Part shown: piece after piece, positions 1 to 32,269 of the stretch
Numbering within the stretch: the first letter of the stretch is position 1
Layout: each line of letters opens with the position of its first letter
Source of the DNA: an uncultured Nitrososphaeraceae archaeon
Lineage (GTDB): Archaea > Thermoproteota > Nitrososphaeria > Nitrososphaerales > Nitrososphaeraceae
DNA: 64,000 bases
Direction: 5' to 3'
Assembly (NCBI GenBank): GCA_963825865.1
Contig: CAWGVG010000021.1
Span: forward strand, 32,001-96,000
Translations under genes and position numbers: made by a program
The notes under the pieces: model-generated
What the model was told of the DNA's origin: nothing
The model's input: the letters and a program-made list of their open reading frames with translations, nothing else
Database searches by the model: none

Positions 1-616
1 TCCGCTGAGCGGAAATCCAAATTCAATATTTATCTGTGGAAACGGCAAGAGTCTAGGTAAGAGCATAGGTATCATAAGCCTGTATCGAATATACGATAAA
101 TACAAGCAAGAACACTTTCCGAAACTATTGGAGAGTCCTAACGTTCCGCCTGAAGACAAGCAAAAAATTAAAGAATTGCTCAAGAAGCCCTGGAATCCAT
201 ACATCAGAAGGCATTCAGCATTGACAGACAAATCTAAGATATTGAAGGAACATGTATTAAGACAGTATGCAGGATGGTCTATAGGTTCGCAAATGCCTCA
301 AAAATATCTCCACTATTTTGGAAATGAATCAAACGAAAGTATCTTAGAAGCATATGGAATAGTTACTAAGGACAAACAATTTGCAGATGCATTGAGGCCA
401 AAACAGTGTCCCAACTGCAATGAGCCAAACAAACCAGATAGCAAGTTCTGTGCTAAATGTAGGATGGTATTAACATATGACGCTTACAATGAAACGATCG
501 AACAGAAAGAGCAGAACGACAAGCAGATTGAGACCTTAACAAAGAAGCAGGAACAGTTCGAGCAGTTAATTCAATCACTTATAGATTCAGGACAGTTGAC
601 TCCGGGTATTAAGTAG
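1..616 (+). CDS. Tyrosine recombinase/integrase, C-terminal part (5' end outside window), with C-terminal zinc ribbon and coiled coil
   Basis: NPYIRRHSALT (HxxR-equivalent box), YAGWS (H/W) and QKYLH (catalytic Tyr), followed by CPNC..FCAKC zinc ribbon; frame is open from the window start. Confidence 0.85.
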   Translation, partial: PLSGNPNSIFICGNGKSLGKSIGIISLYRIYDKYKQEHFPKLLESPNVPPEDKQKIKELLKKPWNPYIRRHSALTDKSKILKEHVLRQYAGWSIGSQMPQKYLHYFGNESNESILEAYGIVTKDKQFADALRPKQCPNCNEPNKPDSKFCAKCRMVLTYDAYNETIEQKEQNDKQIETLTKKQEQFEQLIQSLIDSGQLTPGIK

Positions 617-1020
617 TTGAGCAATGCATTTGCATAATATGATCAAAGTATGTTATACCCCCTTGAGTGTATACGGCTCTTTTTTCCTCTTCTGTTGACT
701 TTGTATCACGAGCGAGATCAGTAGCAATTTTCTTAATCAGATCATCAGTAACATCTTCTTTATTTATGAATGCACTACCAGATTGTATTTCCTTAATGCC
801 ATATTTTAAGACTGGTCTATAGGTATTGAGAAATTCTTTTTCATATCCTTTCATCTGATGAAGACCAGCCTCAATGGAATATTTTCTATGTTCGAAATAA
901 ATATCTGAGCTAGTAATTGCATTATCGATTTTTTTAAAAGATTCTTGGTCGTTAAGAACTTGATCTATTATCTGCTTTACTCTTGATTTGTCATATACGA
1001 TTTTCTTCCCCTTGTTTCAT
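609..1020 (-). CDS. Hypothetical protein (one frameshift; ORF track shows only 609-854)
   Basis: ATG at 1020 (MKQGKKIVYDKSRVKQII) directly after the 1023-1427 ORF; joins the 609-854 frame after one indel. Confidence 0.5.
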
Positions 1021-1022
1021 TG

Positions 1023-1427
1023 TTAGGGTTTGACTGAGAGATAGGTCTTCCCCTTGGATTGGAAAAGTTCTTTTTTGCTGCGTTTCAAGATAAGCCGTCT
1101 AGATATTGAAGATAGCACATCAGATAACTCAGGATTTCCTATATTCTTTTCTTCATTTGCTAGTACAGCCCTAAAATCACGTGGACGTGTAGGGAGCTTC
1201 CGATTATTAGTTAAAATATTGATAGAGATAGTATTGTCAGTTACAGCTGTTTTAGATTGTTTAAATGGCTTTGAATCATGAACGGCACATTCCTCAGGAC
1301 TTTCTCTTGCGATCGTTCTTTTCATGATAGTCAATGTACCCCAAATAATGCCATCAGTGATAGTTGACATTTGTTCTGCATTGACAGTTATCTTTGATTC
1401 CTCATCAGTCAAATCAAAACTAGCCAA
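1023..1427 (-). CDS. Hypothetical protein, basic C-terminus (possible DNA-binding)
   Basis: 134-aa ORF divergent from the RHH gene. Confidence 0.5.
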   Translation of the reverse strand: MASFDLTDEESKITVNAEQMSTITDGIIWGTLTIMKRTIARESPEECAVHDSKPFKQSKTAVTDNTISINILTNNRKLPTRPRDFRAVLANEEKNIGNPELSDVLSSISRRLILKRSKKELFQSKGKTYLSVKP

Positions 1428-1462
1428 TAATAACCATATATTTTATACCATAAAAAGCGTTT

Positions 1463-1600
1463 GTGAACTCTCGTAACACAATTACTATACGACATCAAGT
1501 ATATGAACGTCTAAAACGTCACGGTGTGTTCGGAGAATCTTTTAGCAAGTTGATAACCAGACTTTTGGACGAACTAGAAAGAGGGAGCAACACAGATTGA
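1463..1600 (+). CDS. Ribbon-helix-helix (CopG/VapB-antitoxin-like) DNA-binding protein, 45 aa, missed by ORF track
   Basis: GTG start; MNSRNTITIRHQVYERLKRHGVFGESFSKLITRLLDELERGSNTD matches the TITI..VYERL....GESFS.LI.RLL RHH pattern; stop overlaps next start (TTGA). Confidence 0.8.
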   Translation: MNSRNTITIRHQVYERLKRHGVFGESFSKLITRLLDELERGSNTD

Positions 1601-1818
1601 CGTATAACAGCTTGGATTTTCTTAGCAGATACTGCAGAAATAACAAGCATAACGAATGTTCTGGCATATGGCATGGATTAGGTATAGAAGTTTCCTGTTA
1701 TTGTAACTGTCATAGTAAAAAAGATAAGCAGGCGTTAGATTCGGTAGAGGGACCAGCAGCTAACGCCTTTCATCATATTCAGTTGTCTTCTTCTAAAGAG
1801 GTTAATCAAAGAAGATGA
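1597..1818 (+). CDS. Small Cys/His-rich putative zinc-binding protein
   Basis: CxxxxHxxC...CxCxCH; overlaps the genes on both sides (TTGA, ATGA). Confidence 0.6.
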   Translation: MTYNSLDFLSRYCRNNKHNECSGIWHGLGIEVSCYCNCHSKKDKQALDSVEGPAANAFHHIQLSSSKEVNQRR

Positions 1819-4800
1819 CAGTGAACTGATATAGCCTCTAAAGATAACAATAAACCTTTCGATAATTCTATTACTGTATATAAGAATAGTTCTACCGAAG
1901 AACTGACATATAATGATAATAATTATGATAGCATCCGGCCCGAACTATTAACAAAATACCTTGGGGCAGGTTTCAAGCTTGTACCTGTTGGGAAGGACTC
2001 GAAAACTCCTGCTGTTGATTCTACTAACGAGATTTACAATAATACTAATTACTGGACAGAAGAAAAGCTGGTAAAAGATTATTCCAGATTTTCAAATGTG
2101 GCTACTACGTTTGGTATAACTCATGTTAAGGACGGACATGGAAAAGAAGAAGTCTTGTATCTGCATTGTTTGGACATCGATAGCGATAATGTCTTAAGAC
2201 TCACATCTGATTCTGCTGGAAGAATTACAATCAAAAACATTTGTGACCAAGACGAAGAAAGATTGTAGATACCATGTATACTGGTTAAGTCATACACAGA
2301 ACCCTTCTATTGGAGTAAATAAGTGTAAGCGTGATTATGAATTTGAAATAAAAACTGATAATAGTTTGGGACTCTGCAGTTTGCCTCCTAGCCAACATAG
2401 AGACGATCCATATTTCAGATATCAATGTGTGGGACGAGAAATAAGATCGCTCTTGATGACGGACTTTATGATAAATTATTACAACTACTTTCAAAAGACT
2501 GTTTGATAAGTAATGATGACGATGATAATAATGACGAAGGGAAAAATACAAGAGAAGATGCCAGCAGAGCAAATAGAAGATCTAGATTTGAAACTGCTTA
2601 CAAGGATTTAACAGATACAGCTGTAGAGCAAGTAATAGCCCACGTCAAAGATAGTCTATCAGAAAGGATATAGAGATCCCATAGTTTTTGGCCTTTCTGG
2701 TTTATTGTTCAAAGGTAACGTAGCATTACCAAGTGCCAAAAATCTGATAGGTAGATTATGTGATTATGCTCAGGATGAAGAGAAAATCAATAGACTTGAA
2801 GTATTAAACAACACATATCTGAAAGGTTTAAACGGAAATGAAATAAAGGGAGTGACGCAACTTTTAGAGACTTTAACAACAATCCATGGTGGAAACAAAG
2901 GTTCCGCAACAAAAATTTTAAAAAATATTTGCCAGGTTTTGGATGAGGAGGAAGACGGGTCTAGCAAAAATGGTGCTACCCAGCTATTGATACAGTTAGC
3001 AAAGGATAACACTTTGCTATTTTTCAAGGACCAGTATGATATAACATATGCAAAGGTCAAGGTAGCACAGCATAGTGAGATAATAGCACTCGGAAGCGGT
3101 AAATTTGAATACTTTGTTAGCAAGATATATTACGACTATACCCGAGGGGAAGTAGTAGGCCAAGAATCATTAAACAACGCCATCCGTGTTCTAGTGGCAC
3201 AAACTCTGTTTGACAGTACAACGACTAGGACATTAAATTTAAGGGTTGCATGGGGAGAACAAAAAGGTAGAGGAAATCTATTATGACTTGGCAGACTCGG
3301 AACTGGCGATGCATCAAGATAACTCAACAACGATGGCACATAGTAGCACAAGACTCTCCTGTGTTATTTACCAGGTTCAATCAAAAGGCACAGGTTGAAC
3401 CAGATAGAAATTATTCAGATGATATATTTGACAAGTTTCTTGATCTAATGCATATTAATGACCAAGGACATAGATTATTGACCAAAGTCTGGATTGTATC
3501 GTTGCTGATACCGGATGTTCCACATCCCATTAATATTACATTTGGTGAAAAAGGTAGTTCAAAATCTACATTTTGTAGGTTTGTAAAGAGGCTTATTGAT
3601 CCAGACAAGATAGAACTACTAACCATTCCAAAGGACAAGTCAGAATTTGTACAGCAACTCTATCATAATTATCTTGCCGTGTATGATAACGTAAAAAAGT
3701 TGCCATATTGGTTTTCTGATGAAGCTTGCAAAGCTGTCACAGGAGTTGGTAACAGCAAAAGAAGTTTGTATACTAATGACGAAGACATAATTTACAACTA
3801 CAAGCGCTGTCTGATGATAAATGGCATCAACAACAGTCTAACTGAGCCTGATGCTTTAGACCGCAGCATATTAACAGAATTTGATAGAATATTCCTGAAC
3901 AAAGAAGGGAAGAAGCAAAGGTAGAAGCAGAGTTTGAGGAAATGCGAGCCTAAACTTCTAGGATATATTTTAGATATTTTAGTCAAGGCATTGCAAATCA
4001 AATCAACTATAGAATTAATCAATCTTCCTAGGATGGCTGATTTTGCAGTTTGGGGTGAAGCCATTGCAAGAGCCATGGGATATAAGCCGATGGAATTTGT
4101 TAATGCATACAACGAAAATATAGGAAGACAAAATGTAGAAGCAATTGAATCCAATCTATTAGCTCAGGCAATAGATAAGTTTGTTGACAGTTGGTATAAA
4201 GAAGAGCAAAAGGTAACCTTTGGGAAGGTTCAACTAAAGAAGCATTAGAACAATTAAACAAAATCTCCCAGGCATACAAAATAGATACCACCAGTAAAGC
4301 ATGGCCCAAAGCTGGCCAACTCTCTGACAAGAAGGCTAAGACCTATACTATCAAACCTACGTGAGGGTCTTGGAATTAATGTTGTTATCGGTAGACAAAC
4401 CACTAGTAACGGTACTGACAGTAAAAACAAAGAAGAATACGTCTACCATAAGAATAGAGAAAATATCTCCACTACCTCCACCATCTCCACCAGACCAAAA
4501 TCACGCACAAAATCAAGGCAAAAGCGGTGGAGATATTTTAGATAGTGGAGATAATATCTCCACCCAACAGCAAATACCTCCACCAGAAAATGGCCAAAAT
4601 CACGCTCAAAAAACAGAAAGTGGAGGTAGTGGACATAGTGGAGGTATTATTCCGACCTTAAAAGAGGAGAAAGTAGCAATACGGAAACATATGTTACAAA
4701 CAATCTTTAAAAAGATATGTTGCATTTGACTTCGAATGGTCATTCCTCGGAAGAATCTTCCTCTTCTACATGCAATTTTAGGACAGTCAGCCTTTGTGGA

Positions 4801-6692
4801 CAGTAATGGAAACTATAAGGTAATACATATATCAGATTATTCTGATAAAATCTGCTAATTCAGAAGCACGAACTTTTATTAAATATTAATCAAAGGAGCT
4901 GTTAAAGTATGACTATTCAATAGGATGGTATTCAACTGGTGTTGCTAAATACCACGAAGACACACAAGAATACCTTGATGGAGTTGACTCTGATCTTGTC
5001 GTATTACACAATAGGTGTATTGCAAATGGTATAGATTCTATAGTCAATTTTAACAGCGGGTACTCCATATATTAGAAGCCATCACATATCGACTTCACAA
5101 TGTTTTTAGCAAACCAATGGTGCAAACTATTATTTTCAAGAACGCGTATCGAATCTAAGACTAGATGAAGTATCAAAGGCAATATTATCAGATAATCTGA
5201 GGGTCTAGGAGTAATGAACAGGAAAATACAGAGGACTAACAGGCAAAGACATTCAATCCTTTCAGTTGAAGAGCAGAAGAAGTATGTTCTACGGGATGCA
5301 GGATGGTAATGCGACTTTCAAAGCATAACAATAGTGAAGTTCTTGATGCTATGAAGGCATATCAGAGATAACTGGACTTGAGTTTTGAAAGAGTATGTAG
5401 GACTGGAATATCAACGTGGTGGGCAGCTATTTTTGATAAGATGGTACATGATGGAGAATGTGAAGAACCACCTGTGGTTGCTTCAATTGAGAGAATCAAG
5501 AACAAAAATCTGAAATACAATATATTGGGGGAATTGTCCTTCAACCAAAAAAGGGACTTTATCATAACTTGATTGTTGTAGACGTTACTAGTTTATACCC
5601 TACAATGGCAATACTTCACAACATATCATTTGATACAGTTAACTGTGGATGCTGTGAAGATAATCTTGCAATGCAGAATAGACAAAGGAATTACAAAGGA
5701 CTGCAAAATAGAAAAAGAGTATTGGGTATGCAAACAAAAAGAAGGTTCATTTCCAAAGAAGTTAAAAGTATTCAGAGAAGAGAGACTAAAACAAAAGAAT
5801 CTAGGAAATCAAGTTAAAACAGCTAGCATTAAAGACTCTAATCAATGGTGGATATGGTGTCTTTGGAAGTCGATATTTCAAGTATTATGGCCCAAGGGTG
5901 GCAGAACTAATCACAGCTTATGGTAGATTCACTCTATTAAGAATGCAAGAAATTGCCAAAAGTATGGGATTTGAGATTGTCTACGGTGACACTGACTCTT
6001 TATTCCTTTACAACCCATCTTATGGCAGTAGTGGAGCCGTTCCAAGCCGTGATATTATTTCAAGATTCCAAGAAGAATGTGGTAAGCAATTAGGTGTTGA
6101 AGCCGAGCATGCCAAAACATACCAAACTGCAGTAATTTCTGATAAGAAAAAACATTATGTTGGTTGGACTGTCATAGAAGGAAAAGAACCAGACATTGTA
6201 GGAATGGAAGGAGATAAGAATGATAGGCCTAAATGGATTAACACTGTTTTTAGACAGACAGTACGTGACATTGTTAATAACGCAGATCCTATAGTTAATC
6301 TACGGAAAGCAATTTCGGGTTTAGAATCAGGTCATGTAGATCCAGAATTACTAAAAAGATTTAATAGGCTATCCAAAAATCCAGAAGAATATGAGAACGA
6401 AAATGATCGTAAACGCAAGATAGGGTTAGCAATTGGTGCGAGAAAAGGAGATATTATCGAGTATTTCGAATCAGACAACAATAAAGAGGGATATTCTCTA
6501 AATCCGCAAGACATCAGTGTTAAGAAATACAAGATTATGCTGTGGAAAGCAGTCAAGGACATTCTGGAAATTGCAGGTTATGATACTGCAGCATTAGAAC
6601 ATGAATTAGTTTATACAAACATGACCACACAGCAAAGCCTCCCAGTGGCGTGGTCGGGTTACGCTAATTTGCATACAGGAGGTGAGATATAA
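1815..6692 (+). CDS. Putative fused replicase: PrimPol-type primase, SF3-like helicase, Pro/Gly linker, 3'-5' exonuclease and family B DNA polymerase (many indels)
   Basis: PrimPol motifs GFKLVPV..K.P, CLDID, YHVYW, LPPSQH; helicase GEKGSSKST (Walker A), LAVYDN (Walker B), INGIN, DALDRS; PolB YVAFDFEW (ExoI), YVLRDA (ExoIII), DVTSLYP, K..INGGYG, YGDTDS, KKHY; no in-frame start codon for the PolB part. Confidence 0.7.
4465..4645. repeat. Iteron-like array: ten 9-bp AYCTCCACY units in inverted symmetry (putative element origin)
   Basis: Forward units at 4465, 4474, 4483, 4556, 4576; reverse units at 4526, 4544, 4619, 4628, 4637; CCAAAATCACGC also occurs twice. Confidence 0.8.
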
Positions 6693-6693
6693 T

Positions 6694-7049
6694 TTGGCAT
6701 CAGAAAGTCAAGTATTAAGTCCTAAAGCCAAGGAAAATTTGCAGAGAAATGCAGAGTGTAAGACAAAAGGACAACAAGTTTATAAAAATAGAGCCAAGCG
6801 AGAAGAGAATTTTGCAATTCAATCCAGAGAAAATCGAGCAAGTAGAAGCAGAATTTAACGGAAAGAAGAGTCAAAGATATAGATACACAGTTACAGACCC
6901 AGCAGTGGAGCAATCAAGAAAAGTATCTAGAAGTAGGAAAACGAACTTCTGAAGACATTGACGCATATTTAAGTGAAGGAAAAACATTACTTAAAATTCA
7001 AAGGTTTGGCTTAGGCAAGGATACACGATACCACGTTACACCTGCCTAA
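6694..7049 (+). CDS. Putative phage/plasmid-type single-stranded DNA-binding protein (frameshifted)
   Basis: GGAGGTGA RBS before TTG; FIKIEPSEKRILQF and C-terminal LKIQRFGLGKDTRYHVTPA resemble the I.R.G.G.DT.Y motif of phage OB-fold SSBs. Confidence 0.55.
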
Positions 7050-7366
7050 AGTAACCAAACCTTCTCTATTATTTTTTGTTAGAAATATAACATTGTAATA
7101 TATATAAAGTTAAAAGACTAGGTTTGTACTAATATACTACCATATATTATGTACCTGCGATAGTCAAAATGGTACTTTGGTTTTATGAAAGAAAAATAAA
7201 TAAACCTTCAATAGTATAGCATTTAAAAAAGTTTTTTCTTTTGAGATAAAGTCATGTAATAACAACGAATCCCATGATCAGTCTCTATTTTTTCTTCAGA
7301 TCATATTGACGTATTGTAGTCATATTCCATTAAAAAGGTATATGCAACCTACAAGGACTAGTTTTT

Positions 7367-8110
7367 ATGCCATCAACCATCACTTTTTACGGTGTAGTCC
7401 ATGAGATAGGTGGAAACAAATTTCTTGTGGAAGACAAAGGAACTAAGATTTTCTTGAATTTTGGAATGCAGATGGGTAAGGTTAACCAATATTTTACAGA
7501 ATTTCTGAATCCTCGTACATGTAATGGAATGGGCGATCTGTTTGCATTTGGATTATTACCAAAACTCAAAGGACTCTACAGAAAGGATTATGCCAAACAT
7601 ACAGATTTTGGTGGCAGTGAAGATAATGAAATAGATGCTATAGTCTTAACCCATGCACACGTAGATCATGGAGCTTATATTCACTATCTGAGACCGAGCA
7701 TTCCTATTTACTGTTCAGAAGCAACCATGTTGATAATGCAAGCATTTCAAGACACTGGATCTTTTGAAAAAGTATGTTACCTTTAAGGAAAACTTCATGG
7801 TTAGATTAAACCAGATAGGCGATCTTTCGAATATAAAAGGCAAGGAAATGAGTTATCCAAGAAAAGTTCGAACCTTTCAGGACTAGAAGAAGTTTAATGT
7901 AGATTCTATCGAAGTTGAAGTATTTCCAGTAGACCTTTTACCTTCCCGGTGCTTGTGGTTTCGTATTGCATACTTCAACTGGGTCTATAGGTTATACCGG
8001 AGATATTCGTTTTCATGGTAGAAGAAGATCAGACACACAAAAGTTTGTAGAAAGGTGCGGAAATTCAGATCTTAATATTTTATTGTGCGAGGGAACTCGC
8101 ATCCTGCCAT
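7367..8110 (+). pseudogene. Metallo-beta-lactamase-fold hydrolase (RNase J/beta-CASP-like), truncated
   Basis: EIGGNK, THAHVDH, GYTGDIRFHG and LLCEGT motifs; internal stops and truncation after CEGTRI. Confidence 0.75.
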
Positions 8111-8235
8111 AAAAAGTTGCATTTGGTTGATGGAATTGCATTGAGGATTTGTAACTGTAGCAAAGTTGAAAATGATAAGATCCATAGAGTTGATGACAAA
8201 AGTCAAACCTTTTGGACTTTTATAATGGATACATA

Positions 8236-9330
8236 TTAAGTAGCATTATTCTTTTCTAAGAACTTTAAGGTCTCCTGTAGGGTCGGAGGTTCAGAAAATG
8301 GACTTGTAATATATAAATATGCGTATGCATTTGAAAATACTAACTGTTCTTCCTCTCTAAGATCAATGATTTTGCTCACAATATTTGCTGCATCCCAAGC
8401 ATCTCCTGCACCAGTCAACGTATGAGGATTCTTTACCTTAAATGAATGAGCAAATACGGATCTTTTACCATCTGACCAGACTGCGCCATTTTTAATATGC
8501 ACATTTGTATTAATATTTATTTTATTGGCCAGCACTTTTGCTAATTCTTTTAGCCTATTAACTGCTCTAATTTTGCCATTATCTTCACTGTATTCAAAAG
8601 AATTATCGCTATCATATATAATATCAGATAAAGTATCAGATTTCAATCCTAAAGCAGTTAATATTGAGTTACACTCATTTTCATTTATACTAAGAGTATT
8701 TCTCTTACCAGAAAATTGTGGCAAATCATCGATAAACTCTTTTTTTCTACTTTCTATGTCGGCAGGATCTAATAAGTGAAGTGCATGATAAGAGTTTTTG
8801 AATGCATACTCTACAAGTTCAGTTCCTTTTAAATTACTTCCCCAATTGACTACCATTACACCATCAGCATCCTGCAATATCCTTCTAGTATCCTCGTTAT
8901 CTATACGATCAGGTCCAAAAAAGGCAATATCGCCAACATCGTTTAGCATTATATTTACTTTTGAATGGAGATCGCCTTGAAACTCCATTACTACAGTGTG
9001 GCCATGTTTTCCATGGGAAACTCTGAGTTCTACTCTGTCACCAAATTGAGAGAATTGCTGTTTTAATATATTTGAACCAATTTCGTTAGCAATGGTAAAG
9101 AGCACCACTTTTACTCCCAGTCTTGCAAGACAATACGCAATATTCACAGCATTTCCACCTTTAACATCTGAAATAGAGACATTGCGAATACTTCCTCCCC
9201 CAAATTTTTCTTTTTCAGAAATAATTTCAAACAATTCCTTAGTCGATTGCAACCTAACAAAGCGATCAAGGAAGAAATCGGGCATCACCACGATAGAATA
9301 ATTTTCTAATTCAAAGTCTTTATCAATCAT
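8236..9330 (-). CDS. PfkB/ribokinase-family carbohydrate kinase
   Basis: GGNAVNIA N-terminal motif and TLTGAGDAW anion-hole motif; likely start MIDKDF. Confidence 0.9.
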   Translation of the reverse strand: MIDKDFELENYSIVVMPDFFLDRFVRLQSTKELFEIISEKEKFGGGSIRNVSISDVKGGNAVNIAYCLARLGVKVVLFTIANEIGSNILKQQFSQFGDRVELRVSHGKHGHTVVMEFQGDLHSKVNIMLNDVGDIAFFGPDRIDNEDTRRILQDADGVMVVNWGSNLKGTELVEYAFKNSYHALHLLDPADIESRKKEFIDDLPQFSGKRNTLSINENECNSILTALGLKSDTLSDIIYDSDNSFEYSEDNGKIRAVNRLKELAKVLANKININTNVHIKNGAVWSDGKRSVFAHSFKVKNPHTLTGAGDAWDAANIVSKIIDLREEEQLVFSNAYAYLYITSPFSEPPTLQETLKFLEKNNAT

Positions 9331-9633
9331 TTGTATGATAAATATAGCTATATTCAAGATGTTAATATGAATATATCTATATTTCAAAGTCTGATGTAAT
9401 GAGGGAAGAAGGTGTAAGGTTACTTGCATTCTTATCTCATAGATTAAACTTTAATATAAAATCCTCTTAACTATTCTACCATCCTATTTATTGGTTAGTG
9501 TCAAATATGTATATTATCACAGATATATGATATGCTGTAGGTATCTAATCGTAGTTTGTATCTTATTCTCATGTTATTTCCTGTTTGTAACTTTTTCGTT
9601 TGGTGAATCAATAAACGAATTTAATACTCCAAC

Positions 9634-10711
9634 ATGAGTAGCATAGAATCAAATAAAGGAAGATACTTACAAGGCGAAGCTGTAAATATTAATGGGACTC
9701 TATGGAATGACAAAGTAAATAAAACTAACACTTGTGTTCCACCTAGGACTAACCTAACATTACAGGTAAAACCGATTAACCATAACTTAACCCTTGAAGT
9801 GGATACATCAATTCATCTCAATGGCTGTTCTTTTAGTCACACTTTCGTAAATATATGGGATGTAGGTAAATATGAAATCATTTCTTCAATCGAAAATAAA
9901 ACTCTAGGCCGGACAACTATTGAAATAATCCCTATTTATTGGACACCTGTTCTTCTGGTTTTTAGATGATAAGTTTATGTTTTTTTAGTGCCTTGATGTT
10001 GTCAATTTATTTTTATGCCAGAAAACATACACACATTTATCCGAAATCCAAGTGCTTGGTTATCTCTTTTTCAAGAGGATGGTTTTACGTATTATGGAAA
10101 AACGATCTAAGAACGTAACATTCAAGAAAAAGATATGAGTTTTTATGTTTATATAGACATATTGCGCTTTGTTTGTATTTCAGGAATGGTTATCTTTTTT
10201 ATAATTTCTTTCTTCTCACTTACTTCAGAAATAGGTGGCAATGGACCCATTGGTTTAGTATTGAGGCATATGTCTAACTCTTCCAAAAGCAGTAATACGG
10301 ACATTATGGAAGAGCAATCTACCCGGCAAGTTTGGGTTTTCAACGTAGGAGGAACTTCAACTAGTAAGTCCTATATCTGGTCTTAATATCCCTATTTTTG
10401 TCATATTGGTCGGCGTAGTGGGTGGTTACATTAGATATCTTTACAAAGCAGCAACAAAACGAGATGTGTATGTAGCAACGGCACACAAAGATAACCAGGA
10501 CTCCATAAGCCCTGGAAAATTTGGACATGAAACATTTGAAGAGATTTCGGAAATTATACTTGCTGGCTTACTAGCGATAATTGTCTGGTTTATAATTTCA
10601 CAGGGAACTATAAATACTAATATATATACGCTGGGAGCAGTAAGTCTCACTGTAGGATTAATTACAAAAGAAATTGTCCAAATTCTTAAAAATTTTTCGA
10701 AGAAATTTTAG
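9634..10711 (+). CDS. Hypothetical membrane protein with extracellular N-terminal part (split into 3 ORFs by indels)
   Basis: Consecutive same-strand ORFs 9634-9969, 10135-10386, 10406-10711 with hydrophobic helices (GVVGGYIRYL...). Confidence 0.5.
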
Positions 10712-11205: not shown

Positions 11206-11656
11206 GTGAAAGAAATGATATCCAAGATTCTTGTTGCCATGGATGGTTCAGAGTCATCGGTAAGGGCTTATGAATACGCTTCTTTTTTAGCCAAAAAATG
11301 TGATGCCACTCTACTTATTGTAAACATAAATGATACATTTGAAAGAATATCACATAATATTAAAGAATTTAGAGAAATTGCTAAGCAGATAGAAGAAGGA
11401 GGTGGAACAGCAGTAACTATACAAGTTCTTGAAGATTATCAGTCTCGTGCCAAAGATTCTGGGATAAAAAGATGTAAAAACAATAAGACGTGAAGGAAAT
11501 GCAGTCGTAGAAATATTGCTCATAGCAGATGAAGAGAAGGCGGATACTATAGTAATTGGCAGTACAGGTATGAATGCAGTTAAAGAATTTCCGCTAGGTG
11601 GTGTATCTCATAAAGTCATTCATCAGGCAAAATGCCCTGTTACTGTTGTTAGGTAA
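11206..11656 (+). CDS. Universal stress protein (one frameshift)
   Basis: KILVAMDGSESS and ADTIVIGSTG...GGVSHKVIHQAKCPVTVVR. Confidence 0.9.
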
Positions 11657-12135: not shown

Positions 12136-12288
12136 AGGGCTCATTTTTGATATCTTGCCAGAGTTCAGTTCCTAATGGAGACCCTTCAGAAATCCTTTCT
12201 GGGTTTGGCTATGACTAGATAAAATGCCATATGAATCTCTGCAACATCATTACATAAAAAGATGGTTTGCGTTAAGAGTAGATAAAAT

Positions 12289-12563
12289 ACCTCCACTATC
12301 TCCACTACCTCCACCAAAGCCAAACTCGTGCTCAAATTTAGTCCAAAAACGGTGGAGATATTCTTAGTTGCTGTATACAATATCTCCACCTTTCAACAAA
12401 TACCTCCACCTAATAGTGCAGAAAATAATGTGCCAGCCATTGACGGTGGAGATATTGCAGCCATTGGTGGACATATGCCTTTACGATACCTCCACTAAAA
12501 GAAGTAAAATCATATTCCTTTTTCAAAATAAGCAAAAGTGGAGATGGTGGAGATAGTGGACAT
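12289..12563. repeat. Second AYCTCCACY iteron array (12 units), homologous to 4465-4645
   Basis: Forward units at 12289, 12298, 12307, 12382, 12402, 12488; reverse units at 12351, 12445, 12466, 12537, 12546, 12555. Confidence 0.8.
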
Positions 12564-13121
12564 ATTTTCGGTATTGTTGTGTAGTATATAAAATAAATAA
12601 AAAATCATTCAACATATTAAAAAATTAATGTCATCAGTATATTACTTCCCTATTGAGTTCAATTTGAAATAAATTGGTAGCAGGTGATATCAGATGAAGA
12701 CAGGTGGAAACAAGGAGGGAGCAGGGGTAACAAAATTGGTAACAGGTGGTAGGAGCCCTTATCATTCTTTTTTATTGTGTATTTATTAAACAAGTTAGAT
12801 GGTATTAACAAGACAGCAAAGGGAAAGACTTGTTCTCGATCTCTACAGTCAAGGTAAAAACACGCGCGAGATAGCAGAAGAAGCCAGAATGTCATTTAGT
12901 GCTATAGGCGCCATTCTGAAAAAAGCAGAGGAAGAAAAGGAGGCACAGGGAGAGCAAGAACAAAAGCTGTCTCTAGCCTCTCAAGCTTACAAACTATTTT
13001 CAGAACCTAAAAAACTCTGGCACAAGTAGCTATTGCATTGAACCTAAGGGAGCCTGAGGTAACCAAATTTTACATGGAGTATTGTAAGCTAACTCAACTT
13101 GACAGCTTTTGTCGGATTTAT

Positions 13122-14119
13122 TGCTCTGTTGCATAATTCATTAGGATTTTAGGTTATGCAAACCGTTAGTAGGTTATTCGATTGAACATGTTATACAGAG
13201 CTGCCTTTAGGAGGATCTCTTTTACCATGTGAGGAAACTTTCTAGCTGTTACATGTTCACCAAATGTTCTTTTAATGGAAGAGAATGCTGTTTCTGCTAT
13301 CCACCTGTACCCATAGCTCACGCTACGCTTCCATTTTTTGAGGTTTGCTTGTTGTCTTACTACAGACATATTCCTAGCATAACAGTTAGTTGACTTGACC
13401 TTGGAATTACTTCTTGTCTTTATACCAGGCTTAATGTGGTTCTTTGATAGGTATCTAAAATTCTTATTGCTGTTGTACATACCATCTGCTAATATACCCT
13501 TCAGATTATTATTTTCAGAAGCATTGTCTACTAACTTCTTTAGCATCTTACCATCATGTACCTCTTCACTTGTTACCTCCAGAGATACAATTCTTTTCTT
13601 CTCGATATCAACTGCTATGTGTATCTTTAGATATCCTTTTCTGACATGCCATTTGTGGTGCATCCATTCCCCTCGATTAGCTACCTTAATGCCGGTGCTG
13701 TCTAAAGCAATGACAATATCATTTCCTAATTTTTCATCGATTTTAATCTCTAGCCTGTTTATACGTCTATTAATGGTACTATAATGTGGTGTGTTTGATA
13801 CTTCTTTACTTGCATGAGCTATGACTACACCCTGTGTTTGTCTATATGGTAGATGGAAATATGCTCTCATGTAACCTAGAAGCTGAATAAATGAATTTGG
13901 GTAGCAGTAGGGCTCACCAACCTTACCAAGGTTCATTTGACATAATTCATGATCCCATCCATCAAGTACATCAAAATCCAAGAGTACTTGACCACGCCTA
14001 ACTAGTGATTCATTATAGCAAGGCCAGTCAACCATACCAGAATAATTAATACTAGCAAGCTAAATGGTGAGTGGTCAAATAAGTATCACTTACAAGATAA
14101 TTAATCATGCAACAAAGCA
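13122..14119 (-). mobile_element. IS5-family (IS903-like) insertion sequence, copy 1
   Basis: TIRs TGCTCTGTTGCAT / ATGCAACAAAGCA; 8-bp TSD GGATTTAT at 13114-13121 and 14120-14127. Confidence 0.95.
13166..14035 (-). CDS. IS5-family DDE transposase
   Basis: DWPCYNESLVRRG, ALDSTG, KIHIAVD, LADG.Y, RWIAETAFSSIKR. Confidence 0.95.
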   Translation of the reverse strand: MVDWPCYNESLVRRGQVLLDFDVLDGWDHELCQMNLGKVGEPYCYPNSFIQLLGYMRAYFHLPYRQTQGVVIAHASKEVSNTPHYSTINRRINRLEIKIDEKLGNDIVIALDSTGIKVANRGEWMHHKWHVRKGYLKIHIAVDIEKKRIVSLEVTSEEVHDGKMLKKLVDNASENNNLKGILADGMYNSNKNFRYLSKNHIKPGIKTRSNSKVKSTNCYARNMSVVRQQANLKKWKRSVSYGYRWIAETAFSSIKRTFGEHVTARKFPHMVKEILLKAALYNMFNRITY

Positions 14120-15504
14120 GGATTTATGATCAAATTAAGGATGACATTTACCCTTTTGTGAATTTGTACATTTTGTCTAAGGTGGCACGTATAGATACAC
14201 AACAGGTGGTCAGACTTCTTACAATCGCTAATAATGATCTACCATCAGTACAATGGAGATGTGAAAAACTCAAAAGAGAAGAAGCGTCTCTAAAAGCTGG
14301 TAATCAGAATTCTGCTATGATTTTGCAGGAATTAAGCGACCAGATATCAGATTTACGAAATACATCAGACTCCTGTCGTTTATCATTAGAAGAAGAAAAA
14401 AGACAAATGGCTGAGCTGCGCCAACAAAAGATGAACCAAGAAGCACTTGTAAATGACTTTCAAAACGGTAATGAAGAATTTATCAAAATCATAAAAACTG
14501 TTGAAGAAAAAGTGGTTAGTATTTTGTCAAATGCAAAAGTGCTTCTAAGATGTGCACTTTTGTCTATAACTGAATCAATAACAAATAACCCAGAAAGATT
14601 TAGGTTGATTTTTTACAATATGCCTTCAATAATAGATTGTTACGACAGTAATGGCCAGGATTACGCTACATCCTATATGTATGGAGGACAAATACGACAA
14701 TCACAACAGTACCCATCACCGAATTATAATACTGAAGCTAATGTAGCTATGATAGTAGGTGAAGCTGAAAAACTTTACAATAAGATAGTAAAAGATTGTA
14801 TAAGCAAAGTTGTTGCTGATTATGCTGTTAACAAATCATCATTACCATTGTTACCACCACCCAATGAAGAACAAAAGTCACCTAACATCAACTAGAAGAA
14901 CACACATTCATTCGATACCAAATGAGGACGAAGTTAATTAAAGAGTGATAATAGCGTCATTTTTATTATTGGTCTGATTAATCCCCAACTATGCAAATAT
15001 GAAAAACGTGCAAAGATGTTTAATTACAAATATATAGGTAAGGTGATTGGTAAAAGAGAGAACAAGCCTTTTCTCCCCAGATTTCTTACAGAAAAAGCTA
15101 TCAGAACAGCCTTGCAGAATCTGTACGTATCCTTTGTGAAATGTACATAAATAATAAATGAAAATGCCAGAACATTGCTTGAAAAAGACTTAAGTAATAT
15201 TAGCATGTATCTTGCAAAAGGAAACGAGCGTGTAAGGGCGTCTTTCATAGCCGCAGTCTCATGGTTAGCTCTTGGTAGCAAATTTGCCTTGGCATATGAG
15301 ATCTTCGCTGAACAGATTCTCGAATCGGCTCGTTGCGCTGCTCGCTTCATCATGAGTATTAGGAGATTTTCCTCTCCTACGGCTACACTTGATGGAATTA
15401 TCTTCGCAAGATCTGATCCATACTACATGTATATATATTTGTCAAGTTGCTAAATGTCTCGATAGGTAATATTTTTCATGTCGTTATAGCAGATACATTA
15501 CAAC

Positions 15505-16911
15505 ATGCTAAATTCAGAAGAGAGCACGAATTCATCCTCATTGTCACCTACGTCTACATCACCACCTTCACGACCACCAATAATCTCAGCAATTTCCTCA
15601 TTAAAATTTCCATTTAAGCTTACAAAGGATCAGCTTGAAGCGGTTGATGCATGGATAACAAATGGCTATAGAGGTTCGATAATATACAGTACTGGCACGG
15701 GCAAAACAGAAATAGCATTTGAATGCGCAAAAAGAGCGTGTGAAGCAATAGAACATAAAGAAGATAATAAATCGTCATTTAATATCCTCTTTCTTGTACC
15801 ACGAATTGTACTATTACAGCAGAATATAGACAGGCTAATAAGATATGGTATTGCTCAAGAGAGAATAGGAACATATTTCGGAGAGCGCAAGGAAGTACGA
15901 GAAATAACGATAAGCACGTACCAGAGTGTAATTAGCAATCTTGATCTTTTTAATAATTCTAACATGGTCATATTTGATGAAGTGCATTTAGTAAGTGACA
16001 CTGCTACAACTTTGAGAAAGGTGTTTGATTTTGTAACTGCTGCTGATCCTAAAAAACCATTATTAGGTCTAACCGCAACAATAGATGAACAAGATCCTAG
16101 ATACAACACAATACTGTCATTGCTGCCGCCAGTCAAAAAATATATGATAAGAGATGCTGTGAAAGATAAGCGATTAGCAAGGCCTGTTGTTATTCCAATA
16201 AAAGTTAATCTAACACATAATGAACAAAAGATCTATAATGAATGCTCTACTAAAATCAGAAACATCTCCGGCTATCTTAATACCTCTGACCCCAAATCAA
16301 TATCTTCTCTATTAAGGAGAGGAGGAGGACGAACAGCTGGACTAGCGAGAGCATGGTTTGCAAATGTTAAAGAGAGAAAGAATTTAATTAACTGTGCCAA
16401 AAATAAACTGTCAGCAGCAGTAGATATCATAGCAACAAAACATCGTTCTGAAAGGATTATGGTGTTTAGTGAAACTATAGAATCAATCCAAAAATTAAAG
16501 GAAATGTTACAAAGTAAAGGAATAGAATCCATGCTAATTGATAGCAAACTAAAATCAAAGGAAAGACAAAAAATACTATCAGCATGGGGAAAAGAATTTT
16601 TTCCATTACTTTCAGTACATACGCTAGAAATAGGATATGACGTACCTGAAGTTAGAGTGGGAATAATATTAGCAACGACATCTAATATGAACCAAATAGT
16701 ACAAAGAATAGGTAGAACAATAAGAAAGACTGAAGCGAAAGATACAGCATTGATATACACTATATATCTATCAGAGACTCGTGATGCCAGCACTCTGAAG
16801 ATGGTAAGACAAGCAACAGATGTAGGAGTCGAAAATAAGGATAAGAAAAAGCCAAGAGACAACAGAAGCTTATCCTCTAATAACGATAATCTGGATAGAT
16901 ATATCATTTAA
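15505..16911 (+). CDS. xpb: XPB/Rad25-like superfamily 2 helicase
   Basis: Q motif, TGTGKT, FDEVH, GLTAT, GYDVP, QRIGR. Confidence 0.85.
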   Translation: MLNSEESTNSSSLSPTSTSPPSRPPIISAISSLKFPFKLTKDQLEAVDAWITNGYRGSIIYSTGTGKTEIAFECAKRACEAIEHKEDNKSSFNILFLVPRIVLLQQNIDRLIRYGIAQERIGTYFGERKEVREITISTYQSVISNLDLFNNSNMVIFDEVHLVSDTATTLRKVFDFVTAADPKKPLLGLTATIDEQDPRYNTILSLLPPVKKYMIRDAVKDKRLARPVVIPIKVNLTHNEQKIYNECSTKIRNISGYLNTSDPKSISSLLRRGGGRTAGLARAWFANVKERKNLINCAKNKLSAAVDIIATKHRSERIMVFSETIESIQKLKEMLQSKGIESMLIDSKLKSKERQKILSAWGKEFFPLLSVHTLEIGYDVPEVRVGIILATTSNMNQIVQRIGRTIRKTEAKDTALIYTIYLSETRDASTLKMVRQATDVGVENKDKKKPRDNRSLSSNNDNLDRYII

Positions 16912-17174: not shown

Positions 17175-18170
17175 TCAACAGTCTATTGCTGCTAATAGTT
17201 TATTTTCAGCACAATTGATCAAATTCTTTCTATTTTTAACATTTGCAAACCATGCTCTAACTAATCCAGCTGTATGTCCTCCTTTTCTTAATAGAGAAGA
17301 TAGTGATTTGGGATCAGAGGTATTAAGGAATTCAGAAATGTTTCTGATTTTAGCAGAGCATTCATCATAGATTTTTTTCTCATTATGTGTCAGATTAACT
17401 TTTATTGGAATAACAACAGGCTGTGCTAATCTTTTATCTTTCACAGCATCTTTTATCATATATTTTTTGACTGGCGGCAGCAATGACAGTATTGTATTGT
17501 ATTTAGGATCTTGTTCATCTATTGTTGCGGTTAGGCCTAATAATAATGGCTTCTTTTGGCGATGCGTTGTTGCTGCTATTACAGCATCAAATATTTTTCT
17601 CAAAGTTGTAGCGGTATCGCTTATTAAATGTACCTCGTCGAATACTATCATGTTAGAATGATAAATGAGATTAAGGTCGTTAATTACACTCTGGTACGTG
17701 CTTATTGTTATTTCACGCATTTCTTTGCGCTCTCCAAAATATGCTCCTATACGATATTGGGAAATGCCATATTTTATTAGCCTGTTAATATTCTGCTCTA
17801 CTAGAATAATGCGCGGTACTAGAAAGAGTATATTGAAAGAGTTGTTGTTGATGGCATCATCATTACTATTATGATGGAATAAAATATTATTGTCTTTTGG
17901 ATGTACTATTGCTTCAGCCGACGCTCTTTTTGCACATTCAAATGCTATTTCTGTTTTGCCCGTGCCAGTACTATATATTATCGAACCTTTATAGCCATTT
18001 GATACCCAGGCATCAACCGCTTCAAGCTGATCCTTTGTAAGTTTAAATGGAAATTTAAGTGAGGAAATAGCTGATGATGAGGATGATACTATTGACGTAG
18101 ATTCTTCTGGTGCTGATGGTGTCGCTGATTTTTCTGCAGTTGTTTTTGAATTCAGCATATTGTAATACAC
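17175..18170 (-). pseudogene. Truncated second copy of the XPB-like helicase
   Basis: Highly similar to 15505-16911 up to KNKL.AA; lacks the C-terminal RecA domain (motifs IV-VI). Confidence 0.8.
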
Positions 18171-20553: not shown

Positions 20554-21373
20554 TTATGTTCCCTTGCACATTCCACTAGGAGTAGCAGTTTGACAATTGT
20601 TGCCTGAGAAGTCATTGTGATTAATGTTTGTAGGCAATCCGTTAGCATTGTTGATGTCTTGAACATTTTTCAGCGCTGTGTTGGAGTTTATGGAGTTATC
20701 GTGGCTCTGGGGATCTATAAATATACCATTGGTCGCTCCTTGTATGATATTCTGTAGCTATATTAGATCCGAAACTATTTACCAGTGCAGCTCCAGCCAA
20801 TGCGTTACCGGTTAGCAGGTTAGACTCTACATCAATACCACTGGCAGAATGAGCTGCTATTGCAATTGTATTTCTCTTCATTATATTTTCTGAAAGTGTT
20901 GTATCACGGGTACCAGTCATAAACATCGCAATTTGGTTGTCCTCAGCGATTAGTGTTGATACTTTTACGTGGTGAGCTCCAGTCATCAAAACTCCAGCTT
21001 GGAAGTTCCTTAAGGCTCCCGGTCCCACTATTTCCACATCGTCTGTAGCAGGTATCATTATCCCTACTTTTGAACTGTCTTTTCCAGGGCCACCTATAGA
21101 ATAACCATTTAGGTTTATCCTTGTATGGTCAGCACCTACAATTAACCCATCTCCTCCACAGTTGAGGTTGGATGTTAACGTGACATTTCCTGCCACAACC
21201 TGTCCGCATGCGGGGTTTGTGGTTGTGGGTGTTGTGGTCGTAGGATCTGTGGAAGCAGTATTTGTGAATTGTTGTGGTACAGCCATTACAAGCGTGGGTT
21301 GCATTGTTAATGCACCTAGTGCAGCGAATGAGACTATCGTCGCTACCATGTATGACATTCTAGTTCGATTCAT
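20554..21373 (-). CDS. Secreted right-handed parallel beta-helix (NosD/pectin-lyase-like) protein (one frameshift)
   Basis: Signal peptide, Thr-rich linker, CGQVV..LTSNLNC..GL, INLNGY, N..G repeats, C-terminal NNCQ...GMC. Confidence 0.8.
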
Positions 21374-22087: not shown

Positions 22088-23092
22088 TGCTCTGTTGCAT
22101 AATTCATTAGGATTTTAGGTTATGCAAACCGTTAGTGAGGTTATTTCGATTGAACATGTTATACAGAGTCTGCCTTTAGGAGGATCTCTTTTACCATGTG
22201 AGGAAACTTTCTAGCTTGTTACATGTTCACCAAATGTTCTTTTAATGGAAGAGAATGCTGTTTCTGCTATCCACCTGTACCCATAGCTCACGCTACGCTT
22301 CCATTTTTTGAGGTTTGCTTGTTGTCTTACTACAGACATATTCCTAGCATAACAGTTAGTTGACTTGACCTTGGAATTACTTCTTGTCTTTATACCAGGC
22401 TTAATGTGGTTCTTTGATAGGTATCTAAAATTCTTATTGCTGTCGTACATACCATCTGCTAATATACCCTTCACATGATTATTATTTTCAGAAGCATTGT
22501 CTACTAACTTCTTTAGCATCTTACCATCATGTACCTCTTCACTTGTTACCTCCAGAGATACAATTCTTTTCTTCTCGATATCAACTGCTATGTGTATCTT
22601 TAGATATCCTTTTCTGACATGCCATTTGTGGTGCATCCATTCCCCTCGATTAGCTACCTTAATGCCGGTGCTGTCTAAAGCAATGACAATATCATTTCCT
22701 AATTTTTCATCGATTTTAATCTCTAGCCTGTTTATACGTCTATTAATGGTACTATAATGTGGTGTGTTTGATACTTCTTTACTTGCATGAGCTATGACTA
22801 CACCCTGTGTTTGTCTATATGGTAGATGGAAATATGCTCTCATGTAACCTAGAAGCTGAATAAATGAATTTGGGTAGCAGTAGGGCTCACCAACCTTACC
22901 AAGGTTCATTTGACATAATTCATGATCCCATCCATCAAGTACATCAAAATCCAAGAGTACTTGACCACGCCTAACTAGTGATTCATTATAGCAAGGCCAG
23001 TCAACCATACCAGAATAATTAATACTAGCAAGTGAAATGGTGAGTGGTCAAATAAGTATCACTTACAAGATAATTAATCATGCAACAAAGCA
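22088..23092 (-). mobile_element. IS5-family insertion sequence, copy 2 (near-identical to copy 1)
   Basis: Same TIRs; 8-bp TSD TAAATTTT at 22080-22087 and 23093-23100; transposase 22211-23008 with indels at the 3' end. Confidence 0.95.
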
Positions 23093-26430: not shown

Positions 26431-27186
26431 GTTACAAATTAAGTATTGAGCTTATCATATGCCACAGTATTGGTACACTATAACGTCTAATTTCGAAAAC
26501 TATACCAGTTAACAAAAGTTCGCTAACAACTATCGACGTATTTCAACTCAAAATATTAGCAAAGTGTTAGTGAATTAATGTTAATTGGTATATTTAGTGT
26601 ATGGTAAGACCAACTATGATAGTATGTCAAGTATTACAAAGGTACCTGATACCTGCTATATACTTACTAAGGTCTTCTTTCTGTATCTACAAATCCAATG
26701 TCAGAAAGCATTTCAGATATTTCAGTAAACGAATAAGATCTTCCTTCATATGTCACTAAGATCATGTTAAGCTATTTAGAGCTGAAGGAATGGATTTGTC
26801 TTTTTATCATTTTACCAATTACCCATAAATCATAACAGTGTTTTTATCAGGCAAACTATCGTAAACCTTCCCTTATAGATCAGAAATGTTTTTCAATCCA
26901 GGTATACAATTTTAGCGTTGTAATGAACTCAATTAAATGTATAATACTCTAAAAATCGGAATCATCCAACTCATCAATGAATACTATTGAATTGATGAAA
27001 GAGGTCAAAAAAATAAAATGGTAGCACAAAATTGACTTCGAACCGGAGTTATTAGTCTAGGCATAGATATAATACCAGAAAAGTTGAAGTGGATTCAGAT
27101 GACTCGAACCAAGACTACAATCATTTGTATGTTGCAATTCTCCGAGTCAATTATGAGGATATGAGCGTATCTTTCCGTAAGTAAAG

Positions 27187-27270
27187 CGCGGGGAGTGGGA
27201 TTTGAACCCACGAGTTCTTTCGAACATGGGATTAGCAATCCCACGCCCTACCAGGCTAGGCGACCCCCGC
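27187..27270 (-). tRNA. tRNA-Ser (GCT)
   Basis: GCGGGGG/TCCCCGC acceptor stem, TGGGA-TTGCTAA-TCCCA anticodon arm, long variable arm, GGTTCAAATCC T-arm, discriminator G. Confidence 0.95.
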
Positions 27271-31985: not shown

Positions 31986-32269
31986 AGATGGTTTACCTTA
32001 AAAAGACATCCATACATAAGTTTATCGACCAAAAATTCCATAAAACCTAGAACACTATACAAATAGAGTATGACAGATATGGCATGAAAACGAGAGAAAT
32101 TTTGGTGTATTGTCCGTTACAAATACAGAATCAGTTCATATAATCAATTCAACGAATTGTAATCAAAAATAATGCAAAGTCACTTACAGATGAAATGTAT
32201 AGTTTAAGATTCAGCTTTAGAGTAGCTTTAAATAAATATAAATAATTCTGGAAAAAGATTCAGAAAAAT

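Follow-up and report, generated by a model that had tools for sequence, protein, structure and literature searches.

What kind of genetic element do the first kilobases of this archaeal DNA belong to, where does it end, and could it still replicate? The DNA analyzed, hereafter the window, comprises 64,000 nucleotides from an uncultured Nitrososphaeraceae archaeon, an ammonia oxidizer of soil (positions 32001–96000 of contig C21 in genome G000). At its left edge, a tyrosine integrase gene is followed by a gene for a ribbon-helix-helix (RHH) protein, a long region homologous to a primase–helicase–polymerase replicase, and a small gene with a modelled OB fold. An annotation made from the sequence alone (the original prediction) had taken positions 1–7090 to be a self-synthesizing integrative element. 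These genes belong to an integrated, plasmid-like, non-viral-looking mobile element that is real and bounded. The reading we prefer, with a probability of roughly 0.72, is that of a cryptic integrated plasmid-like element of 18,053 bp that has its own replication operon and of which this copy is probably replication-dead. The features that define its ends are as follows.

C21:31130–31150 (870–850 nt upstream of window base 1): left attachment repeat, attL, sequence CTACTGCTGCCTAATAGTTTA
17183–17202: core of the right attachment repeat, attR, sequence CTATTGCTGCTAATAGTTTA, where the 18,053-bp insertion ends on the right
C21:30633–31094 (window −1367 to −906, left of attL), minus strand: C-terminal fragment of the target helicase, helicase B, 153 codons, PF00271
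17175–18170, minus strand: N-terminal fragment of helicase B, 331 codons
15505–16911, plus strand: helicase A, an intact superfamily 2 (SF2) helicase (ResIII/Helicase_C, XPB-like) and paralogue (77% amino acid identity) of the disrupted helicase B
1–616, plus strand: 3′ part of the tyrosine integrase gene, 204 codons and stop, in a frame open at 2–616

A direct repeat of 20/21 nt bounds the element, the left copy having one mismatch and one extra base. The 20-mer occurs once exactly in the window and once more, at up to three mismatches, inside helicase A; shuffled sequences gave an expectation of 0.00 chance matches, and attL and attR are the sole near-exact pair in the genome. Both fragments of helicase B overlap helicase A at the same 21 nt (16404–16424 in A). 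When the flanks were joined with a single copy of the repeat, an uninterrupted open reading frame (ORF) of 495 codons was restored, which is 77% identical to helicase A and collinear with it in one high-scoring segment pair. The interval first proposed is thus part of the element, but it covers only the integrase-proximal (left) third, and the true ends do not lie at ~7.05 kb. The element is not fixed in the lineage: at the syntenic locus of the related genome G001, the genes for eIF2-alpha and Nop10 and a homologue of window 20699–21373 adjoin without an insertion. The helicase is also missing from that locus. No empty site was found in other genomes: in five relatives, the closest helicase homologues sit in unrelated surroundings and have no neighboring gene in common with helicase A or B.

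The integrase gene begins 144 nt inwards from attL. Its full gene has 440 uninterrupted codons, with an ATG at C21:31294 (L001:19294), 706 nt upstream of the window, and the product matches the phrog_1 integrase family (E = 8e-15), which bears out the assignment as a tyrosine integrase. It carries a SAM-like N-domain (PF02899) and a C-terminal zinc ribbon and can be aligned with the integrases of related elements. We propose that this recombinase would have inserted the element at the 20/21-bp core inside the SF2 helicase gene. The original prediction had suggested looking upstream for a tRNA gene or an attachment repeat matching sequence to the right of 7049. An attachment repeat does exist, in the helicase gene; there is no tRNA gene near the element (the sole one in the window is at 27186–27270), and the match is not to the right of 7049. 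A direct-repeat search of 12 kb around the locus did not return the pair, the true repeat lying outside that range. A 17-nt repeat at 1433–1449 and 7139–7155 (88% identical) was entertained as the attachment site and dropped after the repeat in the helicase gene had emerged.

The left third of the element, between the integrase and the end of homology with other copies, contains the following features.

609–854 (81 aa) and 1023–1427 (134 aa), minus strand: two ORFs of no known family
1463–1600, plus strand: RHH gene, PF02697 (31.5 bits against a cutoff of 27.9), first in the replication operon
1597–1818, plus strand: Cys/His-rich ORF of 73 aa, whose TTG start overlaps the RHH stop
1815–2670, plus strand: Prim-Pol (AEP) domain, DxD motif LDIDS at 2170–2184; frames break near 1826, 2211, 2437 and 2655
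2639–4360, plus strand: PriCT-like helical linker and P-loop helicase-like domain, Walker A GEKGSSKST at 3544–3570; frames break near 3272, 3303, 3892, 3949, 4215 and 4315
4430–4600, unstranded: linker repeat module with three ATATCTCCAC 10-mers (4463 plus, 4527 minus, 4554 plus) and further CTCCAC repeats
4677–6689, plus strand: family B DNA polymerase (PolB), ExoI FDFEW at 4725–4739, motif A at 5590–5604, motif B at 5844–5858 and motif C YGDTDS at 5982–5999
6682–7049, plus strand: small conserved gene with a modelled OB fold, a candidate for a single-stranded DNA-binding protein (SSB), read in three frames with two shifts (near 6745 and 6905)
7050–7115, unstranded: T-run and common terminus of the replication module, where homology stops at ~7078 in seven aligned right ends and at ~7115 with the copy on contig C53

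The proposed replication operon would run from an RHH regulator through a small Cys/His-rich protein and the replicase to the small OB-fold protein. The RHH assignment held, the Pfam match exceeding its cutoff. For the next gene, described as a zinc microprotein, the ORF is present and Cys/His-rich and may bind zinc; it matched no Pfam or PHROGs family, and no counterpart was found in the relatives. An ATG at 1815 overlaps the stop codon of this ORF (ATGA), but the Prim-Pol segment is read in another frame. A scan for bacterial promoters and terminators told little: it gave 35 promoter-like sites where 27.8 were expected, and 2 terminator-like ones where the expectation was 3.7. The pair of minus-strand ORFs occupies the place of the single minus-strand ORF that relatives have between integrase and replication operon.

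Frameshift-aware protein-to-DNA alignment with three intact relatives traced homology to the replicase without a break over 1923–6658. The proposed replicase gene, of about 4.9 kb, is therefore real as a continuous stretch of homology, but it has no intact ORF and contains about 20 frame breaks. In our model, the product would combine a Prim-Pol, a P-loop helicase-like domain and a proofreading, PolB1-like polymerase, as one polypeptide in some relatives and from two genes in others. When the window's own replicase pieces were searched against Pfam and PHROGs, only the polymerase was recognized. The Prim-Pol, which has no direct Pfam match, was identified by comparing nine homologous N-termini with those of 18 PF09250-annotated proteins (hhalign probability 99.4%, E = 1.6e-21, 243 columns); the alignment keeps the G-x-H and EFEIK motifs. 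Against the PDB, the Prim-Pol profile matched only the prim-pol chains of pRN1 ORF904, at an E value that is not significant (0.28). The polymerase matches PF00136 at 5491–5814 and 5805–6689 (E = 2.2e-13 and 8.9e-17). Its 5′ half has many frame breaks, including a 1-nt indel at about 5377, and 5805–6689 is a single open frame. The nearest solved chain to the polymerase part of the relatives is Sulfolobus PolB1 (1S5J, E = 3.6e-48), and the protein-primed type (PF03175) scored 16.1 bits, below its cutoff of 25.8. By these sequence comparisons the enzyme is of the nucleic-acid-primed PF00136 type and PolB1-like.

The middle domain was more difficult to assign. It has 534 database homologues (E ≤ 1e-5), which are fused to PF09250 (about 800–970 aa), to PF00136 (1240–1427 aa) or to both (P0085, 1468 aa). 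Its structural neighbors in the Atlas are primase-fused proteins (TM score 0.53–0.70), and its feature neighbors there include DUF5906, Pox_D5 and VapE clusters (0.91). Several results count against the assignment. No helicase family of Pfam or PHROGs recognizes the sequence, and its profile found only P-loop noise among PDB sequences; the AlphaFold2 (AF2) model is poor (pLDDT 58), and the case for a helicase leans on the P-loop, on context and on weak leads from structure. Nothing was returned when the helicase and N-terminal regions of relatives were searched as single sequences against the PDB. When the poor model was submitted to Foldseek, the SCCmec Cch helicase, AsfvPrimPol and poxvirus D5/E5 led the matches, with a best E value of 2.5e-3 and a TM score of ~0.2; given the quality of the model, these matches serve as a lead only. 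We regard the identification of this domain as a primase-associated replicative helicase, probably SF3-like, as moderately supported.

The small gene downstream of the polymerase had been called SSB-like. Its family is real: it is present in 25 of the 121 genomes of the family and has 501 cluster representatives among 1.84 billion proteins (E ≤ 0.001), all small and stand-alone, and in seven loci of other genomes it adjoins PolB matches. In the window, however, the gene is frame-broken. The AF2 model (pLDDT 84.9) has a strand-rich core and one helix, and the top rows of its VIA list are baculovirus LEF-3 (Z = 6.6, root-mean-square deviation 3.1, 72 aligned) and the Rim1 SSB (Z = 6.4, root-mean-square deviation 3.6, 77 aligned). 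The list includes many SSB, PriB and RPA rows and also the OB folds of toxin B subunits. Because no row reaches Z ≥ 8, the SSB function is a fold-level lead, which is strengthened by the position of the gene and otherwise tempers our interpretation. Two of ten members of the family matched the SSB family phrog_1192 (E = 0.003), both Pfam matches among 44 scanned members fell below their cutoffs, and Foldseek returned nothing at E ≤ 0.001 (best E = 0.066). Judged by its modelled fold, the protein probably binds single-stranded DNA. Solo or partial OB-fold genes also occur away from PolB in this genome (C53:35028–35498, C62:33998–34431, C15:134516–134663, C28:79558–79647 and C3:27573–27678), and all inspected solo copies are broken.

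The 10-mer ATATCTCCAC occurs seven times in the window against 0.19 expected, always within the 18-kb element; three copies lie in the linker module, three in a second module described below, and the seventh at 304–313. The CTCCAC modules are candidates for iterons, an origin or regulator sites, and replication might start at these clusters. Contigs from environmental samples share only ~33–41 nt around 4450–4490 and then diverge. A ~140-nt repeat at 4437–4585 had been considered as a miniature inverted-repeat transposable element and was dropped, since it encodes a conserved C-terminal tail of the helicase proteins.

The condition of the replicase gene determines whether this copy could replicate. 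Stop-to-stop translation of the replicase stretch yields 15 or more open segments, spread over three frames, and frameshift-aware alignment gives 19–22 frameshifts and 1–3 in-frame stops, depending on the reference. If all of these breaks, and those in the OB-fold gene, were consensus errors, both genes would be intact and the element would be an active, recently integrated self-replicating one. We consider this alternative possible but place it on the weaker side of even, and the observations that favor it weigh directly against our preferred reading. Part of the frame breaks are assembly errors. Among 43 conserved host genes aligned to their G001 orthologues by the same frameshift-aware method, 14 are broken, essential ones such as metK included (21 frameshifts in 50.6 kb, or 0.42 per kb, and no stops), and 16 of the 21 shifts are +1; in metK (L038:2340–2400), a run of G is longer by one base, and apart from this the gene shares 84% identity with its orthologue. 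Open frames no shorter than 150 aa cover 48% of the genome, compared with 69–89% at six loci from relatives. Furthermore, 19 copies of an insertion sequence (IS) that are at least 97% identical show 61 inserted and 6 deleted bases, with 55 substitutions; their 53 gap openings per 18.1 kb aligned correspond to about 1.5 per kb per copy. Base insertion is therefore the signature of assembly error in this genome. A replicase of a sister subfamily on contig C7 has ten shifts (2.4 per kb), nine of them +1 and all either +1 or +2, but not a single stop, and could thus be intact in the organism.

Environmental sequences point the same way. Short contigs from four public soil or rhizosphere runs of three studies, 88–100% identical to the window, lack one window letter at 1826, 2211, 2655, 3272, 3303, 3949, 5382, 5664 and 5814 and have one added letter at 3892 and 5357, so that the break is not there at any of these 11 sites. 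Contigs at least 98.7% identical differ by one gap each, at 2211 and 2655 in two of them. No public sequencing run contained more than 0.08 of the sampled words, and stretches that the contigs do not cover carry no information on the breaks. No unambiguous nonsense substitution is left: the stops at 4887 and 5073 are replaced by flanking shifts in alternative alignments, and supposed nonsense codons at 3922 and 5369 were dropped because compensating indels flank both. All catalytic motifs are retained, and the ratio of nonsynonymous to synonymous substitution (dN/dS) relative to the paralogue on contig C3 is 0.16 over 291 codons, a value that favors a recently functional gene. The integrase and the attachment repeats are clean, and the halves of helicase B show no break in 1.49 kb, which points to a recent insertion. 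If the replicase has really decayed, most of that decay would have to be older than the insertion, and this is a tension in our account.

The breaks in the replicase nevertheless differ from this background in density, type and distribution. At about 4–5 per kb, they are ten times as frequent as in host genes and two to three times as frequent as in the IS copies or the C7 replicase. About half of the events are 1-nt losses, an excess that is most likely real, against an error spectrum of 80–90% insertions; relative to the paralogues on both C3 and C15, for example, there are five 1-nt gaps at about 5153, 5197, 5257, 5301 and 5359. The breaks cluster in the replicase, whereas the integrase, PolB 5805–6689, the PfkB gene and helicase A, all within this element, show none. 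The losses at 3892 and 5357 are restored by contigs of only 91–97% identity, which thus come from relatives. Because half of the breaks are losses, unlike the insertion-biased assembly errors, decay is likely, and on balance we lean towards a replicase that is truly inactivated in this copy. Independent replication, as had been envisaged in the original prediction, is doubtful for a copy whose replicase is not intact in sequence. In our preferred reading, about 20 one- or two-base indels would interrupt the replicase and OB-fold genes, leaving a replication-dead copy in which the integrase and attachment sites would remain intact. The single-base insertions found throughout the assembly (e.g., in metK and in the Usp gene at window 11206–11656) probably also lower the reported completeness of 81.8%.

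To the right of the replication module, the element contains a cargo region with the following features.

7367–8240, plus strand: metallo-beta-lactamase (MBL)-fold gene, fragmented
8236–9429, minus strand: PfkB-family sugar kinase, 397 aa, open
11206–11656, plus strand: universal stress protein (Usp), two ORFs in different frames
12260–12470, unstranded: second iteron-like module, 78% identical to 4430–4600, with three ATATCTCCAC copies (12352 minus, 12380 plus, 12446 minus)
12799–13029, plus strand: helix-turn-helix-like protein of 76 aa, weak GerE match
13166–14035, minus strand: IS transposase (DDE_Tnp_1), one of the 19 aligned copies at least 97% identical
14107–14895, plus strand: 262-aa protein, no family match

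Helicase A lies 272 nt from attR in the opposite orientation to helicase B. The same DDE_Tnp_1 insertion sequence is also found outside the element at window 22214–23047. Together, 19 IS copies and about 25 integrase-related loci make up a mobile load that fits the large size of the genome, 4.98 Mb.

The cargo between 7.1 and 17.2 kb could have a history of its own, which weakens the case for a single unit. The 18 kb might instead comprise an element of ~8 kb, with integrase and replication genes, beside unrelated cargo or host DNA, or a tandem pair, helicase A being a displaced host gene. The end of replication-module homology at 7078–7115, the cellular look of the cargo (PfkB, Usp, MBL) and the second iteron-like module would all suit such a composite. 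So would helicase A, which is 85–88% identical to the helicases of other genera and closer to them than helicase B is (68.9–75.1% for the N-terminal fragment, 73.0–82.1% for the C-terminal one). We find a composite improbable. There are only two copies of the attachment core, which flank all 18,053 bp, with no third near 7.1 kb; the element has a single integrase; and the target ORF is recovered exactly once the outer flanks are joined. Moreover, as far as the available text of the survey by Krupovic et al. (2019) goes, UspA-family genes are among the cargo of thaumarchaeal integrated elements already on record (PMC6563490).

That the element is the provirus of some unknown virus of archaea is less probable still. 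Its structural genes would have to be among the unannotated ORFs, and there are several family-less stretches (609–1427, 9634–10711 and 14107–14895) that could accommodate them; the Atlas neighbors of the small protein and the helicase protein are also often viral. Among the 16 ORFs scanned across the 18-kb element with Pfam and PHROGs, however, none matched a capsid, portal or terminase family. No conjugation family was matched in the same scan either, in agreement with the proposal that such genes are lacking; the families that the scans recognized were PolB, helicase, transposase, Usp, PfkB and MBL. IMG/VR contains no close relative: a single-protein query returned none, and an alignment query returned six loci at 25–35% identity that match in PolB only.

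The replication module recurs within this genome and across its relatives. Within G000, the PolB piece matches 19 places, the helicase piece 6, and some 25 loci contain relatives of the integrase. The copy on C15 has nearly the full length, but mixed shifts and one TGA break it. On C3 (C3:200409–204022, L037), a truncated PolB with the small gene shows a Trp-to-stop change and is neighbored by an unrelated 389-aa tyrosine recombinase and a 3′ fragment of dnaK. The sister-subfamily element on C7 (C7:22100–31500; L036:6120–15442) is complete: besides an integrase and an AEP-PriX protein, it encodes a replicase that shares 68% identity with a relative of 1395 aa. In a further arrangement of these parts, an 829-codon open frame at C31:3586–6072 (L007) combines the polymerase part of PolB with a C-terminal AEP-like domain with a PriX module.

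Among the 121 genomes of the family, 56 match the PolB piece (E ≤ 1e-20), a tally that includes cellular PolB (~900 aa) and G034. Intact replicase frames are found in G013, G073 and G002 (1381–1401 aa) and in G069 (1797 aa), and helicase, AEP and PolB are fused in one polypeptide in G069 (1792 aa) and P0085 (1468 aa, PF09250 and PF00136). The layout recurs on contig C2 of G041 (L081), where an integrase is followed by minus-strand ORFs, an RHH gene (54.5% identical over 33 aa), a small ORF, a Prim-Pol protein, PolB and the small protein. In G041 and G042 (C1:1120554–1126102, L078), the same Prim-Pol domain is followed by an MCM-type helicase (PF00493), and PolB is encoded further downstream by a gene of its own. 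By sequence, the helicase module has been swapped within one element family. The G042 integrase adjoins a tRNA-Arg gene, and partial repeats of the tRNA 3′ end lie 21.6–22.5 kb away.

Plasmids of the pRN1 type, found in Sulfolobales, encode the prim-pol/helicase ORF904 together with a CopG-like RHH protein and are not known to have a PolB or an OB-fold gene. The element resembles them in the order of an RHH gene, an N-terminal prim-pol and a P-loop helicase, with marginal sequence similarity (the E value of 0.28 given above), and differs by its PolB and its OB-fold gene. The closest described counterparts are the thaumarchaeal cryptic integrated elements (CIEs) surveyed by Krupovic et al. (2019), which in the available text of that survey have tyrosine integrases, RHH proteins, a primpol fused to a superfamily 3 helicase and UspA-family genes (PMC6563490). 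Their attachment repeats have a median length of 17 bp and are mostly shorter than 26 bp (PMC6563490). The element shares with them the tyrosine integrase, the short attachment repeat (20/21 nt), the RHH gene and the lack of virion and conjugation genes (PMC6563490). It has an integrase and direct repeats at an identifiable target, and no virus hallmark, conjugation or Cas1 match was found in the scanned ORFs; it is a thaumarchaeal CIE with an unusually complete, modular replication set. In the CIEs for which that text describes a PolB, the gene lies beside MCM (ThaMY3-E2) or in a PolB/RadA-like operon (NitGar-E5) and is neither fused nor coupled to a primpol-helicase (PMC6563490). Unlike the CIEs described there, the element combines Prim-Pol, helicase, PolB and an OB-fold protein in one module and carries a paralogue of the helicase gene that it disrupts.

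Fusions of helicase, primase and PolB (HelPrimPolB) are described, in the parts of the sources used here, from Lactococcus phages (phage 1706 gp55) and Rhodococcus phages (PMC4889955, PMC7544198). The likeness lies in a helicase, an AEP primase and a PolB in one polypeptide, which is seen in G069 and P0085, the window frames being broken. Whereas that group comes from phages, the hosts here are archaea and the genes lie in integrative elements. HelPrimPolB proteins are also described there with a divergent motif C and KxY; the polymerase here has the canonical YGDTDS and 1S5J as its nearest solved chain, a comparison made by motif and not by tree.

An integrated element that encodes its own PolB might also be a casposon or a pipolin, and pipolins share tyrosine recombinases and direct repeats as well, according to the portions of the literature available (PMC5695915, PMC4046053). 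We give this identification practically no credence. The recombinase is a tyrosine integrase, the scanned ORFs contain no Cas1 match in Pfam or PHROGs, and the repeat scan of 12 kb around the locus found no terminal inverted pair. The PolB, with its matches to PF00136 and 1S5J and its subthreshold score for PF03175, is of the nucleic-acid-primed type and is accompanied by its own primase and helicase. On this point the original prediction was correct. Its broader claim of a different architecture holds insofar as the element is neither a casposon, nor a pipolin, nor evidently a provirus; it is less new than was supposed, since CIEs with a primpol–superfamily 3 helicase and HelPrimPolB fusions have been described in the sources above. 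Full-text searches, whose scope did not extend to supplementary annotations, found no paper on integrase elements of Nitrososphaeria that combine Prim-Pol, helicase and PolB.

A bolder view would make these elements a distinct, widespread self-replicating integrative class in soil ammonia-oxidizing archaea, characterized by a one-polypeptide replicase with a proofreading PolB, a dedicated OB-fold binder, and iterons in the linker of the replicase gene at which replication starts, some members inserting into an SF2 helicase gene and bringing a replacement helicase, with the window copy recent and possibly active and its breaks artefacts. Taken as a whole, this is unlikely. In the model that we favor, intact members of the family would pass through an episomal state in which the replication set would serve to prime and unwind the element's DNA and to copy it. 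Judging from gene content, such replication might be independent of host PolD/PriSL.

To our knowledge, no plasmid or vector is available for ammonia-oxidizing archaea, few of whose mobile elements are understood. With its own primase, helicase, proofreading polymerase and probable single-stranded DNA binder, the element family is a candidate for a minimal replicon in these organisms, and its site-specific integrase, with a defined 20-bp target, is a candidate integration tool. The locus also shows how insertion-prone assembly can mimic gene decay. For the family itself, the combination of the Prim-Pol with either this helicase or MCM, and of a PolB that is fused or separate, provides a further example of the shuffling of replication modules among archaeal elements.

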